A stretch of DNA of 64,000 nt from Chitinispirillaceae bacterium (GCA_050304135.1 JBNLDC010000063.1:12176-76175), one strand, 5' to 3'. Counted from the stretch's first letter, positions 4,946 through 9,694 are shown. The notes: a model not told the origin generated them from the letters alone. Numbers and translations: made by a program.

Positions 4946-6922
4946 TCATAGTGACACCTGTTTTCGAAAGGGTATAGCCGATACCAGTTTCAGCGCCACG
5001 ATTCCCGCGGCCACCATTCCCAGTCCAAATTGCGGGATGAGGATGGTGGCCGCAAGTGCCATACCAAGTACCCCACCGGTGCAGTCTGCCGCATAAAGGA
5101 AACCGGTCTGCCGTGTGGAACGGGTAACAAACTGCGCTGACCCCATGTATCCCGCCACCGCATTACAGAGAAAAAACAGTACCACCGGTGGTTCTTTTGT
5201 GTAAATAACCAATACAGCAAGTGAACCGCCGAGTATTCCGCCAACCCAGAGATCAGAATACGGAAACTGCCGTACCCTGCACCCTGCTGCGAACCCGGCA
5301 GAAAGCGACAGCAGCAGCAGCGGAAGTTGGCTGTAGATAGTCCCGTAGAATGACTGATACATAATAATCAGCCCAGTTGAATATACTCCTATACACATTC
5401 CGGTACTGCCGACCGACACCACCGGTTTAGATAACCGGGTCAGCGGCAGGAGAACCATTACCAGCAGCAGCGGCAGCGCGATAAAAAGCCATCGAGACAG
5501 ACTGAACAGATGCAGATAGCCATCAAGTACGGGCATAAGCAACCAGGGATGTGCTGCCGTATGCATACGATTCACCGAAGGCGGTCGGTTTGCTGCCGCG
5601 ATTCGCTCGGCAGTCAATCCGGCAAGCACCACCGGCTGAAAATACCCGGTCGTGACCCTGCAGCTATCAGGCAGCGTGTAATCGGCATCGGCAGCGAGAA
5701 ACGTGAACCCCTCTCCCGGAAGTACCTGCACATACCTGAACACATCGCGTAAGGTGGTAATAATGATCGAGCGTATTTTCTCTTCCCGTTCATCGATGTA
5801 TTCTCCATGAAAGGGAAGGGTAAAGGAAAAAATCCCCGAATCTCCGGTAAGTATTTTTATCTGCCGGAAAAACGATCGGGTGAAATACCGGCTTGTGCTG
5901 ATATTATCAGGCATTGAACAGGCGAGCAGTACCGCATCGAACGGTCCATGCGACATTTCCGGAGCGAGACTGCCGAATGGACAGCAACTGTCAACCATAA
6001 GCCGGTCGAGCCGAATGCAGCGGATTTCCGCCCCCCGGTATTTTTGCGCTTCAATCAGGTGCCCGGCACTGTTGAGCAGCAGTATCGACCGTGGCATGGC
6101 CGGCAGCATCGACAGCGGTGCATGGACCGCCTGTTCGACCGCCGGTGTTCCGTAGGAGAGCGCATGGAGCGTACCGTTGACATAGGTCAAATGTTCACCT
6201 TCAACAGTTGCAGTCGCCACCTCACCATCCCGGGTATAGTGTATCCGACTGACGGGAAACGGGTACTTCCATGCGGCAGTGGAGCTGTCGGTCAGAAACA
6301 GCAACGCGACCACCGCGATACCCACACCCCGCCGGATACTGCCATGAAGCAGCGGCAGAAGCAACAGTAACACTCCGGCAGCAATTATCCCGTTGGGAAC
6401 CGACCGCCAAATGGCAATTGCTACCAGACTGAGCCCCAGGAGGCTTCCCGCCTGCTCGTTACTGTAACGATTTCGTCCTTCGCCGTTTTTAACGGTTACA
6501 CCAAATATATAACCGCCGGCAGCCGCCCCCGGAACAACAGTAACCAGCAGAAGCAACGGTAACAGTTGCGGGGGCACAGCAGCACCCGGCAACTGAAACA
6601 GCCGTACCGCCCTTATGCCTGCCAGTCCTGCGGCGAATACGATCAGCACTACGAGGAGTGCATCCGATAACGAAAGAACTGTTTTTTTCTGGGCACCACC
6701 AGCCCCCGCCGCAGTCGCAGCCAGCCAGATCGCCAGCACCATCCCCACGGTCATTTCATTACCCGCGATAACGGTGAGCACCTCCCGCACCAGCACAACC
6801 TGCATTACAGCAGTTACCAGGCCGGTCGCAAATACTACGGCACCAGAAGATCCCGGTACACCCTGAATTATTGTTTGACGCATCTGACGCAGTTTGTCAG
6901 TTTGGTGCCCGAGCGTACTCAT
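4946..6922 (-). CDS. polytopic membrane protein with a central spermidine-synthase-like (polyamine aminopropyltransferase fold) domain
   Basis: 658 aa. Multiple hydrophobic helices flank a segment resembling the SpeE core (…ILLLNSAGHLIEAQKYRGAEIRCIRLDRLMV…FDAVLLACSMPDN…FFRQIKILTGDSGIFS…). Its 3' end overlaps the next gene by 4 nt. Confidence 0.55.
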   Translation of the reverse strand: MSTLGHQTDKLRQMRQTIIQGVPGSSGAVVFATGLVTAVMQVVLVREVLTVIAGNEMTVGMVLAIWLAATAAGAGGAQKKTVLSLSDALLVVLIVFAAGLAGIRAVRLFQLPGAAVPPQLLPLLLLVTVVPGAAAGGYIFGVTVKNGEGRNRYSNEQAGSLLGLSLVAIAIWRSVPNGIIAAGVLLLLLPLLHGSIRRGVGIAVVALLFLTDSSTAAWKYPFPVSRIHYTRDGEVATATVEGEHLTYVNGTLHALSYGTPAVEQAVHAPLSMLPAMPRSILLLNSAGHLIEAQKYRGAEIRCIRLDRLMVDSCCPFGSLAPEMSHGPFDAVLLACSMPDNISTSRYFTRSFFRQIKILTGDSGIFSFTLPFHGEYIDEREEKIRSIIITTLRDVFRYVQVLPGEGFTFLAADADYTLPDSCRVTTGYFQPVVLAGLTAERIAAANRPPSVNRMHTAAHPWLLMPVLDGYLHLFSLSRWLFIALPLLLVMVLLPLTRLSKPVVSVGSTGMCIGVYSTGLIIMYQSFYGTIYSQLPLLLLSLSAGFAAGCRVRQFPYSDLWVGGILGGSLAVLVIYTKEPPVVLFFLCNAVAGYMGSAQFVTRSTRQTGFLYAADCTGGVLGMALAATILIPQFGLGMVAAGIVALKLVSAIPFRKQVSL

Positions 6923-8379
6923 TCCTCAAAATGCACTGCCCGGTAGGTTGAAACTTCGGCATGTTTCCAGCCGTCTCGCGGCATTCGCCCTTTAAGCGAG
7001 AGCTGTTCAAGGAAGGCGACTTTATCAGGCAACTGCTCCCACACCTGTGGAAGATAGGTGGATTGATGGTTGCCGCTACGGAGAATAACACCATCACGTC
7101 CGGGGACAAGTCGTGCGAGCAGCTCTTCAGGCTTCTTATACGGTAACGGCTCGGGAGGAGTCAGAACAGATATTTCAATTTTTATTCCGGCAACCTCACC
7201 GGGGGTTACCTTCGGGAAACGCGGATCGCTCAACGCCGCGTTTGCGGCATTGTCAACAACCGCCTGAACAAGCGGCTTTATCGGTTCGATGTACCCGATG
7301 CATCCCCGGAGTGCGCGTTGTGCGGTGAGTGTAACAAAACAGCCCCGGTTTTCCTTCACCTCCTCCGGGGTATCAGCTGGCAGCTTATACCGGTTCCCAG
7401 TCACAGCAGCCTCAAGACTTCCCCGTGCCACCCCGAGCAGAAATGCTTTTGTTTCGTCGGATAACCCATCGTCGGTTTTTTTCCGTTCCGTTTCACTCCC
7501 GCTGAACCGACGCGCAGCCTCGGGTGAAACATACGCGATAGCCGCATAGCCAACCACCCTGGTTTTCGGGCAATGCTGCGGTGCGGTATCGTACGATGTC
7601 CTCGCGTCAAGTTTTACCGGTTCCAGGCCGAGCTTTTTCCCGAGTGACATCACAATCCTGATCGGCAGATCACCACAGGCATTGATTTTTCCATTTTCTT
7701 CTCCGGAGAGTATGGCGGCAATGGATGCATCATCTATTGAACGCGCCGATTCCTGCTTCTCGTAATGTGAAAAATCCGACGAGGCAACAACGACTGTCTG
7801 TTTGTCGATAAACGGCAACAGCAGCTCCGCCACCTGTTTCGGATCAGCTTTTCCCACCAGCAGCGGCACAATGGCAAAATCCGACAACTGCACCTGCAGA
7901 AAGGGAAGCTGCACCTCCAGACAGTGTTCCGGTTCGTCAAATCCCTCCGCGGCGATCACTCCCGGCTGCCCGTTCAGGCGATCAACGACCTCCCGGTCAA
8001 TTTTCACTCTGCCGAGCGGTGTTTCATAGTAATCAAATCGCGGAACAGCAATACCTCTGAAAGCTTCATAGTGCGACGGGCCGATGATAATCACCCGTTT
8101 CGCATTGCCATCCATTGTTGCATATCCTTTGGCGGCAACCGGCCCGGAAAAAACGAATCCTGCATGTGGGCAGATCATCAGCCGTACCGGTTCGGAAAGC
8201 GGCCGGGCGTCGGAGAGATACCGGAGAATAACCTCCCGCAGCAGTTTCGGATTTTTCTCATAAAACGTTCCCGCGACCGCCGCTTTACGCACTGTATTCT
8301 GTGCAGAAGCACTGAAAAACATACTGTTCATAAGCATCACTCCACCGATAAGAATAAGCGTCAGTTTACCTTTAACCAT
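6919..8379 (-). CDS. AmmeMemoRadiSam system fusion protein: N-terminal MEMO1-like (protein B) domain plus C-terminal AMMECR1 (protein A) domain, with a predicted Sec signal peptide
   Basis: 486 aa. N-terminus MVKGKLTLILIGGVMLMNSMFFSASA-QN looks like a signal peptide. MEMO1-like core (AGTFYEKNP…ICPHAGFVFSGP…GPSHY). C-terminal AMMECR1 core (RGCFVTLTAQRALRGCIGYIEP…). A GGAGG RBS lies upstream of the ATG at 8379. Confidence 0.8.
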   Translation of the reverse strand: MVKGKLTLILIGGVMLMNSMFFSASAQNTVRKAAVAGTFYEKNPKLLREVILRYLSDARPLSEPVRLMICPHAGFVFSGPVAAKGYATMDGNAKRVIIIGPSHYEAFRGIAVPRFDYYETPLGRVKIDREVVDRLNGQPGVIAAEGFDEPEHCLEVQLPFLQVQLSDFAIVPLLVGKADPKQVAELLLPFIDKQTVVVASSDFSHYEKQESARSIDDASIAAILSGEENGKINACGDLPIRIVMSLGKKLGLEPVKLDARTSYDTAPQHCPKTRVVGYAAIAYVSPEAARRFSGSETERKKTDDGLSDETKAFLLGVARGSLEAAVTGNRYKLPADTPEEVKENRGCFVTLTAQRALRGCIGYIEPIKPLVQAVVDNAANAALSDPRFPKVTPGEVAGIKIEISVLTPPEPLPYKKPEELLARLVPGRDGVILRSGNHQSTYLPQVWEQLPDKVAFLEQLSLKGRMPRDGWKHAEVSTYRAVHFEE

Positions 8380-8382
8380 GTG

Positions 8383-9483: not shown

Positions 9484-9484
9484 A

Positions 9485-9694
9485 TCAGTGGGCCTCAAAA
9501 AATCTGCTGCTGGTGCCGCCTTCACCGATAGGAATGCGGACCTGTTTTCCGCATCGTGGACACCGCCCCTCGTAGGCGGACCCGGTTCCGTTGCAGTAAA
9601 TCCGTTGATACAGGTTGCAGCAGCGGAAATGGACTCCAAGAAACTTTCTTCGGGGTGAATCATTTCGTGATGTTCGCGGGTCGGAATCGGCCAT
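9485..9694 (-). CDS. small zinc-ribbon protein (hypothetical), translationally coupled to the radical SAM gene
   Basis: 69 aa with two Cys pairs (CCNLYQRIYCNG … CPRCGKQ). Its TGA stop is 1 nt from the ATG of the radical SAM gene's MISRR start. Only valid if that downstream start is the true one. Confidence 0.3.
   Translation of the reverse strand: MADSDPRTSRNDSPRRKFLGVHFRCCNLYQRIYCNGTGSAYEGRCPRCGKQVRIPIGEGGTSSRFFEAH

Follow-up and report, generated by a model that had tools for sequence, protein, structure and literature searches.

Do radical S-adenosylmethionine (SAM) enzymes of the AmmeMemoRadiSam type work outside the cytoplasm? The question is raised by a gene cluster at positions 4946–9694 of a 64,000-nucleotide stretch of DNA (JBNLDC010000063.1:12176-76175, hereafter the window) from a Chitinispirillaceae bacterium, in which a radical SAM gene, a gene for a fused Memo–AMMECR1 protein and a gene for a polytopic membrane protein follow one another on one strand. 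MEMO1 and AMMECR1, both linked to disease, have been conserved all the way from archaea to humans, and their biochemical function is unsolved. An initial annotation of the cluster had recognised the AmmeMemoRadiSam genes, a Sec signal peptide on the fusion and a twin-arginine-like leader on the radical SAM protein, and had offered wrongly assigned starts or an atypical variant as the two explanations. We propose that the cluster encodes an envelope-facing AmmeMemoRadiSam system of three genes and four domains. Judged from sequence and from homologues, an extracytoplasmic location is probable, and we hold it with moderate confidence.

The four open reading frames (ORFs) of the initial annotation, including the 4-nt overlap with the gene for the 658-aa polytopic protein, were confirmed on the minus strand. 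They and their parts are listed below; MFS stands for major facilitator superfamily, TM for transmembrane helix, Tat for twin-arginine translocation and K+R for the summed number of Lys and Arg residues.

9485–9694, minus strand: zinc-ribbon gene, 69 aa, Cys-rich (RCCN...CPRCG), from ORF translation.
9483 (start) to 8383 (end), minus strand: radical SAM gene, 366 aa, from its TIGR04337 match.
9373–9483, minus strand: twin-arginine-type leader of the radical SAM protein, residues 1–37 (MISRRSCIGALCSCGALVAAGGGTPLLAAGTTSGHPA); the TIGR04337 match begins after it.
8383–9372, minus strand: radical SAM catalytic region, PflA-like (TIGR04337, PF04055).
8379–6919, minus strand: Memo–AMMECR1 fusion gene, 486 aa (TIGR04336 and TIGR04335).
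8302–8379, minus strand: Sec-type signal peptide of the fusion (MVKGKLTLILIGGVMLMNSMFFSASA), from the sequence and homologue N-termini.
7534–8289, minus strand: Memo (protein B) domain (TIGR04336, PF01875).
6928–7443, minus strand: AMMECR1 (protein A) domain with LRGCIG and DPRF motifs (TIGR04335, PF01871).
6922–4946, minus strand: membrane protein gene, 658 aa, from the ORF.
6278–6844, minus strand: membrane protein residues 27–215, MFS-like N-lobe (TM1–6) and extra helix TM7.
5492–6265, minus strand: membrane protein residues 220–477, spermidine-synthase-fold domain, predicted periplasmic.
4973–5491, minus strand: membrane protein residues 478–650, extra helix TM8 and MFS-like C-lobe (TM9–14), from the structure model, hydropathy and K+R counts.

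A single nucleotide separates the stop codon of the zinc-ribbon gene (TGA, 9487–9485) from the radical SAM ATG at 9483 (MISRRSC...; protein N-terminus MISRRSCIGALCSCGALVAAGG). Three nucleotides lie between the radical SAM stop and the ATG of the fusion at 8379, which is preceded by GGAGG (protein N-terminus MVKGKLTLILIGG / MVKGKLTLILIGGVMLMNSMFFSASAQN), and the fusion stop and the membrane protein start overlap in ATGA (6922–6919).

All three AmmeMemoRadiSam families are represented above their model cut-offs. The radical SAM protein matches TIGR04337 with 338.9 bits (cut-off 220) and also PF04055, and it contains three Cys motifs, CxxCPxxC...C at the N-terminus, the cluster motif CNLRCKNC (CX3CX2C) and CxxC...CxxC at the C-terminus; the invariant Cys columns of the family include its C114, C118 and C121. 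Residues 31–282 of the fusion match TIGR04336 (Memo) with 222.6 bits (cut-off 26) and residues 313–484 match TIGR04335 (AMMECR1) with 185.4 bits (cut-off 99); the corresponding Pfam scores are 168.9 bits for PF01875, with model positions 2–268 of 269 covered, and 152.6 bits for PF01871. The RGChG and DxRa motifs defined for AMMECR1 by Balaji and Aravind (PMC2034487) are present as LRGCIG and DPRF. Because the family matches are joined by the radical SAM and AMMECR1 motifs, the cluster is a full AmmeMemoRadiSam member, as the initial annotation had it. The three components are co-encoded on one strand with 3-nt spacing, likewise at the compared loci L001–L005 and L086–L089.

The cluster shares with canonical AmmeMemoRadiSam systems the three family matches, the adjacent and co-oriented genes and the CX3CX2C, RGChG and DxRa motifs, and a Memo–AMMECR1 fusion is a known arrangement (PMC2034487). 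It differs from them in that every component bears a predicted export signal and in the presence of a conserved third gene, here called MFS/SpeE-like. The next-best relatives of the radical SAM protein are glycyl-radical activases of the PflA family (TIGR02493, 58 bits; YjjW activase, 56 bits), which belong to the same core radical SAM fold family. These scores are far under the respective cut-offs, however, no glycyl radical enzyme is encoded nearby, and the window protein has additional N- and C-terminal Cys motifs as well as the export leader.

The leader of the radical SAM protein comprises an n-region with SRR (SRRSCIG), a Gly/Ala-rich h-region and an Ala-rich end, and the TIGR04337 match starts directly after it, at residue 38. 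About 100 radical SAM homologues of 362–370 aa align with the window protein over their full length and start with M-x-[ST]-R-R-x-x-[LI]-[KR], and orthologues carry leader motifs such as TRRELLK, SRRDFLK and SKREFLK. A scan of one genome per species yielded 80 radical SAM loci from more than ten phyla, among them Fibrobacterota, Bacteroidota, Omnitrophota, Ignavibacteriota, Thermodesulfobacteriota, Acidobacteriota, Latescibacterota, Eisenbacteria and Elusimicrobia. A leader with twin Arg/Lys is present at 61 of the 80 loci (27 RR and 34 KR, the KR leaders having the form S/N-K-R-E-F-L-K and occurring mainly in Bacteroidota); among the remainder, 5–6 have a very hydrophobic leader without the twin residues and 13 are leaderless. 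A strict motif, [STN][RK]R.[FL][LIVM][KRQ], which is our own pattern rather than TatP or SignalP output, is found in 37 of 81 radical SAM proteins vs 1 of 748 other ORFs at the same loci. The twin-arginine-like leader is thus genuine and conserved. A TatA-like ORF was sought within the 64-kb window and none was found.

The public gene call for the radical SAM protein has 426 aa and starts at 9663, while relatives are called at 366–370 aa. Since the extension of this call (9484–9663) overlaps, in another frame, the 69-aa zinc-ribbon gene, which is itself conserved at 64–72% identity in relatives, we take 9483 as the true start. In the window protein, no Met follows the leader until the radical SAM domain starts with its conserved ARFW/CxxCPxxC. 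Alignment with orthologues, a check that the initial annotation had proposed, showed the N-terminal extensions to be conserved across phyla; of its two explanations, wrong starts can be set aside and an atypical variant stands, although not as a local oddity.

The extent of this variant became apparent from a search of 1.84 billion cluster representatives, which returned 1414 radical SAM relatives at E ≤ 1e-30. We classified the N-termini of the nearest 150: 74 have no N-terminal extension, about 24 have a short, non-hydrophobic extension, 32 have a twin Arg/Lys leader, 4 have a hydrophobic leader without the twin, and 14 have a long N-terminal fusion. Canonical members from archaea and eukaryotes, and many of those from bacteria, have no leader (the 74 and about 24 of the 150). 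Approximately one third of these representatives carry leaders or extracytoplasmic-type fusions and make up a large clade. The leader also resembles those of Tat-exported iron–sulphur (Fe–S) proteins (HybA, NapG, DmsB-type ferredoxins and the Rieske protein), in which a S/T-R-R-x-F-L-K-type leader likewise precedes a cofactor domain whose folding has to take place in the cytoplasm. In contrast to the present case, no radical SAM enzyme is among the known substrates, and electrons suffice there whereas SAM is also needed here.

Further N-terminal and internal variants were seen among the homologues. In a subclade of five loci (L049, L063, L067, L084 and L085, with radical SAM ORFs ending near 7950–7990 of the 15-kb loci), the Tat motif is followed by an inserted 'ARYW..G..CxSCH' segment, with a CxxCH haem-c-type motif, and by a His-rich linker before the usual CxxCAxxC start. 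In other TIGR04337 homologues (L018, L037, L054, L080, P0274, P0300 and P0315), the leader is very hydrophobic, of Sec-like or lipobox (LSGC) type, and has no twin Arg/Lys. Two long proteins, P0342 (803 aa) and P0354 (710 aa), contain an insertion of about 430–450 residues directly after CX3CX2C that ends in ...VGN/C or ...VCN/C and looks like an intein with a homing-endonuclease region.

The signal peptide of the Memo–AMMECR1 fusion can be parsed, by inspection and hydropathy, as MVKGK / LTLILIGGVMLM / NSMFFSASA-QN, with a maximum hydropathy of 2.76. Full-length fusion homologues have in common a hydrophobic core, 'GVxxM', behind which the end is SAxA-like or lipobox-like (FNC/FSC), and many shorter database entries represent starts that were called at an internal Met of this core. 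Signal or lipobox N-termini are found on 39 of the 42 Memo(-AMMECR1) partners encoded at the 80 loci, so that the Sec signal peptide noted in the initial annotation is a conserved feature. At one locus (L006), Memo and AMMECR1 are encoded by separate genes, each with its own export-type N-terminus. The partners at L017 and L040 clearly have no signal, and both adjoin leaderless radical SAM genes.

The MFS/SpeE-like gene recurs with the same two partners far beyond the Fibrobacterota. With the window protein as phmmer query, it was detected at 46–53 of the 80 loci, and at 40 of 46 it is directly adjacent and on the same strand, with a median gap of 645 nt between the matched regions. The gene order in Fibrobacterota is as in the window, and in Bacteroidota it is Memo–AMMECR1, MFS/SpeE-like, radical SAM. 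Where at least 5 kb of flanking sequence is available in either direction (43 loci), both partners accompany 26 of 33 Tat-type radical SAM genes, and the membrane gene is present at 4 of 9 leaderless ones. All-against-all clustering of 829 neighbouring ORFs gave only three families that cross phyla, namely radical SAM, MFS/SpeE-like and Memo/AMMECR1; a recurrent electron donor, ApbE or Tat genes were sought in the same set and none was found across phyla. The initial annotation had made its proposal depend on conservation of the SpeE-like neighbour in related genomes, and the neighbour proved to be conserved in many phyla. The arrangement as a whole recurs in numerous phyla of anaerobic bacteria.

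Some leader-bearing radical SAM genes stand apart from this arrangement. At L007 (7971–8687), L008 and four further loci, genes for Memo, AMMECR1 and MFS proteins are all missing within 7 kb; the radical SAM genes of this type are followed by a membrane ORF of about 219 aa that is DsbD_2-like by eye, echoing the DsbD_2–radical SAM fusions P0271 and P0280.

The window membrane protein matches no Pfam or NCBIfam model even at E ≤ 10 and has only 16 close relatives, several of them on contigs that bear radical SAM homologues. A profile of these relatives matches SpeE structures weakly (E 0.0018). An AlphaFold model computed from their alignment (predicted local distance difference test score, pLDDT, 84.5; predicted template modelling score, pTM, 0.84) predicts a SpeE fold, with its N-terminal beta-hairpin domain and Rossmann domain, together with two six-helix lobes of MFS architecture, and all top Foldseek matches of this model are SpeE. 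According to hydropathy and the model, the soluble domain is flanked by seven helices on either side, TM8 being the most hydrophobic segment of the protein. Orthologues beside AmmeMemoRadiSam genes in other phyla have 700–850 aa and the same three-part layout, and pass PF01564 at 50–101 bits. The model NF037959, 'fused MFS/spermidine synthase' (cut-off 40), is exceeded by six of ten orthologues (42–71 bits) and missed by four, and the window protein does not match it. The label 'SpeE-like' therefore suits the fold and the wider family, whereas the window protein itself has no family match.

Like NF037959 and PRK03612 (COG4262) proteins, the MFS/SpeE-like protein has a polytopic N-terminal region followed by a SpeE-fold domain. 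Unlike in those proteins, the domain sits between 7+7 helices rather than at the C-terminus, the window protein matches neither model, and the family is constantly linked to AmmeMemoRadiSam genes. Versions from Bacteroidales (L020–L077) have an N-terminus that is longer by about 100 residues (805–847 vs approximately 715 aa) and a Gly-rich loop reduced to SGxxxS.

The distribution of positive charges is strongly uneven. Averaged over 56 sequences, K+R sums are 16.7 on the predicted cytoplasmic loops vs 1.9 on the others: K+R-rich are the N-terminus (2.9), L2 (2.5), L4 (2.7), L6 (1.5), L8 (2.2), L10 (1.5), L12 (1.8) and the C-terminus (1.7), and K+R-poor are L1 (0.0), L3 (1.0), L5 (0.3), L9 (0.1), L11 (0.4) and L13 (0.05). 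This alternation argues for an N-in, C-in topology, as in every MFS protein, and the N-in orientation is also fixed by the MFS fold. With TM7 leading out and TM8 leading back, the SpeE-fold domain would be placed on the periplasmic side.

Relatives in which the radical SAM domain is fused to other domains bear on both the location and the electron supply. The extracytoplasmic-type fusions all score 356–387 bits on TIGR04337. The architectures, from N- to C-terminus, are:

P0281, P0289: TM anchor, RnfG-type FMN_bind (FMN, flavin mononucleotide), radical SAM, with no TM between.
P0267, P0283: FMN_bind, NapH/NosR-like helices (two CX3CP), extra TM, radical SAM.
P0291: DsbD_2, FMN_bind, NapH/NosR-like helices, extra TM, radical SAM.
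P0271, P0280: DsbD_2, radical SAM.
P0269, P0273: signal peptide, CBM11-like or beta-propeller domain, radical SAM.
P0274, P0284: signal peptide, Memo, AMMECR1, radical SAM.
P0305, P0329, P0412: leaderless triple fusion, radical SAM, AMMECR1, Memo.

In NosR and NapH, the CX3CP loops are cytoplasmic, and FMN_bind/NosR/NapH-type parts feed electrons to periplasmic enzymes such as NosZ. Counting helices in P0267 would put its CX3CP loops in the cytoplasm, as in NosR/NapH, and both its FMN domain and its radical SAM domain outside. The triple fusions exist with and without a leader; all three catalytic domains must therefore act on the same side of the membrane, be it inside or outside. In the relatives, the redox fusions and those of a signal peptide with Memo–AMMECR1 suggest that the enzyme acts outside the cytoplasm and is supplied with electrons from the membrane. 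The redox fusions share FMN_bind, Fer4_5 CX3CP and DsbD_2 parts with NosR/NapH/RnfG conduits, and differ from these in that the fusion partner is a radical SAM enzyme and not a respiratory reductase. The window operon encodes no FMN/NosR/DsbD-type module, and an electron donor of the window system would act in trans.

What the analysis shows is the identity of the genes, the fact that leaders and third gene are conserved, the folds and the fusions. From these we infer export, membrane side, transported species and chemistry as follows. The radical SAM enzyme would be loaded with its Fe–S clusters in the cytoplasm and then exported in folded form by Tat, and the Memo–AMMECR1 fusion would be exported by Sec. 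The translationally coupled 14-helix MFS-fold protein would hold an adenosyl-binding-type SpeE-fold domain in the periplasm, between its two extra helices. Together, the components would perform a radical-SAM-initiated modification of a non-nucleic-acid substrate in the periplasm or outer leaflet, either a small molecule or a compound linked to the envelope or to lipid. Electrons for SAM cleavage would come from membrane or periplasmic carriers of the RnfG-type FMN, NosR/NapH-like or DsbD-like kind. The MFS part may move a small molecule across the inner membrane; our preferred guess is SAM outwards and/or 5'-deoxyadenosine and methionine back, and the pathway substrate or product is the alternative cargo. 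Any such specific role of the MFS protein in handling a co-substrate or cargo is doubtful at present. We regard as tentative, and less likely than not, the wider picture of a first radical SAM family outside the cytoplasm, to which the MFS–SpeE protein would deliver SAM or from which it would remove products, and which FMN/NosR/DsbD conduits would reduce; the ancestral Memo/AMMECR1 chemistry would then be directed at a small molecule or envelope lipid rather than at RNA.

Several observations weigh against an extracytoplasmic system. To our knowledge, SAM has not been reported from the periplasm, nor has any radical SAM enzyme been established there. Thirteen of the 80 loci encode a leaderless radical SAM protein, which at L042, L052, L053, L078 and L079 stands beside a signal-bearing Memo–AMMECR1 partner. 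Sec-like or lipobox leaders without twin Arg/Lys (e.g. L018, L037, L054, L080, P0274 and P0300) are hard to reconcile with export of an Fe–S protein. The anchor of P0272 has more Lys after its helix than before it, so that its enzyme may stay cytoplasmic. The SpeE-like site is most degenerate in the window clade, with the ribose-binding Glu changed to Arg and a deletion of about 24 residues, which weakens a SAM-handling role there; some orthologues, e.g. those at L075 and L010, keep an intact GxGxG/Glu site. PRK03612-type proteins, finally, share the N-terminal helices, have canonical sites for decarboxylated SAM (dcSAM) and need cytoplasmic dcSAM.

Alternatively, the leaders may tether the proteins to the membrane or be vestigial Tat-like sequences, as in NarG, with the radical SAM enzyme and possibly its partners kept beside the MFS protein on the cytoplasmic face and the chemistry in the cytoplasm. 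Such an arrangement would account for leaderless radical SAM proteins next to signal-bearing partners, for hydrophobic leaders that lack twin Arg/Lys and are incompatible with Sec export of an Fe–S enzyme, and for the positive charges after the P0272 helix; SAM and low-potential reductants are, moreover, cytoplasmic. The leaders nevertheless show the full tripartite Tat design, with the S/T-R-R-x-F-L-K consensus and Ala-rich ends, which is more than a remnant, and the partners bear ordinary cleavable Sec or lipoprotein signals. Tethering also fits poorly with radical SAM domains fused directly behind FMN_bind, behind a signal peptide and CBM or propeller domain, or behind a signal peptide with Memo–AMMECR1, and with the extra helix of P0267 between the cytoplasmic CX3CP loop and the radical SAM domain. 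We consider it unlikely, although it is the strongest of the alternatives.

The leaderless enzymes with exported partners (L042, L053 and L078) would also be accommodated by a pathway split across the membrane, in which the radical SAM enzyme makes an intermediate in the cytoplasm, either prior to its own export or without being exported, the MFS protein exports this intermediate, and the SpeE-like domain and Memo–AMMECR1 finish the reaction in the periplasm. This would give the constant transporter-fold protein a task. It conflicts with the Tat-type leaders on most of the radical SAM proteins (61/80) and with the single-chain triple fusions, which put three catalytic domains on one side, and cytoplasmic-type systems are more often found without the MFS partner. 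A split pathway is accordingly improbable, more so than tethering.

The initial annotation had taken the SpeE-like neighbour as a hint at a polyamine or aminopropyl substrate, and the protein could be a working membrane aminopropyltransferase of the COG4262/PRK03612 type in a system that modifies or uses a polyamine. In keeping with this, the fold match is SpeE, orthologues score above the PF01564 threshold and are similar to PRK03612 in both the helices and the SpeE domain, and some carry the JGI label 'spermidine synthase'. The active site argues otherwise. In an alignment with residues 80–202 of Thermotoga SpeE, the dcSAM-binding Asp of GGGDGG, which selects this substrate, is absent in 56 of 56 members (V/A/L/S/T in other phyla; N-SAGH as the loop of the window clade). 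Absent in 56 of 56 as well is the catalytic Asp of DSTDP (Thermotoga D170), with N/L/H/C in its place. The window protein reads NSAGH for GGGDGG, CIRLD for CEVD and CSMPDN for DSTDP. Orthologue scores are far under the cut-offs of TIGR00417, PRK00811 and PRK03612 (the last at 472), the window protein has no Pfam match, and its domain is predicted to be periplasmic, away from dcSAM, in an MFS-fold protein. We reject a working aminopropyltransferase on its active-site residues as very unlikely, and the polyamine hint falls with it.

That the leaders are merely mis-assigned start codons and the proteins begin downstream has next to no probability and is effectively refuted, for although public calls are inconsistent (the radical SAM protein called at 426 aa, many Memo–AMMECR1 homologues from an internal Met), leader sequence and length are conserved in protein across phyla, the 426-aa call runs across a conserved gene that is read in another frame, no Met separates the leader from the radical SAM domain in the window protein, and the Tat motif is enriched in the radical SAM proteins (37/81 vs 1/748).

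The zinc-ribbon gene upstream of the radical SAM gene encodes a protein with the motif F[LI]GVHFRCCN.Y.RIY.N..G.AY[ED]GRCPRCGK.V..PIG. It occupies the same position at L086–L089, with the 64–72% identity given above, and also lies beside the radical SAM gene at L090–L092 and L095; in Chitinispirillaceae relatives, too, the spacing to the radical SAM gene is 1 nt. It has no family in Pfam or NCBIfam and weakly resembles archaeal ribosomal protein S27e (E 2.8e-4). A metagenome scan retrieved 207 relatives, a family of 55–70-aa proteins (loci L090–L169). Among the best 80 of these 207, 76 have no radical SAM gene nearby and only the four closest adjoin one; genes for an ECF sigma factor, for BamD, for a protein resembling BamB, for TerB and for FTCD_C are among those that flank it elsewhere. 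A general role as a system component, Tat chaperone or radical SAM substrate was rejected on these 76 of 80 loci and their varied neighbours. The ORF reported in the initial annotation is a real conserved gene that adjoins the radical SAM gene in Chitinispirillaceae relatives only, and it is probably a co-transcribed bystander that is not specific to the system.

The window is identical to a contig of the metagenome-assembled genome GCA_050303235.1. The closest named homologues of the cluster are from Chitinispirillaceae (Fibrobacterota), and these relatives keep the order bamD, nadD, zinc ribbon, radical SAM, fusion, membrane protein. In the window, nadD, bamD and cpoB/ybgF-like genes lie upstream of the cluster and a GNAT gene lies downstream:

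4445–4900, minus strand: RimI-like GNAT acetyltransferase (TIGR01575, 91.9 bits, cut-off 86.4).

This gene begins 45 nt past the membrane protein gene and is kept at L086 and L087; L088 has an opposite-strand GGDEF gene instead. It does not figure among the cross-phylum families and is probably a housekeeping gene outside the module. A promoter and terminator scan of 4200–12600 gave counts near the shuffled expectation and was uninformative. The sole match of an Rfam scan is a group II intron outside the operon, downstream of it at 1987–3838 (minus strand; RF02005 D1-D4-6 at 3622–3838, 105 bits), with a reverse-transcriptase ORF at 1987–3330 (PF00078 in the public call).

We found no literature on an exported AmmeMemoRadiSam system or a periplasmic radical SAM enzyme. 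An earlier mention in Burroughs et al. (2019), whose abstract is said to suggest an isoprenoid link, is possible, and database annotators may have seen Tat profile matches already. Compared with the known AmmeMemoRadiSam systems, what is new here is the predicted export signals on all parts, the MFS/SpeE-like third gene and the recurrent fusions with redox modules of periplasmic or transmembrane type. Canonical members have been proposed to be RNA base modifiers (PMC2034487), a role that cannot apply to an enzyme outside the cytoplasm.

The function of MEMO1 and AMMECR1 is best approached through the bacterial three-gene system. With predicted export of all its components and a conserved transporter-like protein, the large clade described here argues against a nucleic-acid substrate of its own and narrows the search to periplasmic or envelope molecules. 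If export is true, it would break the working rule that radical SAM enzymes act in the cytoplasm only, and it would raise the question of how SAM and low-potential electrons reach the periplasm, for which the FMN_bind, NosR-like and DsbD-like fusions are candidate answers on the side of the electrons.

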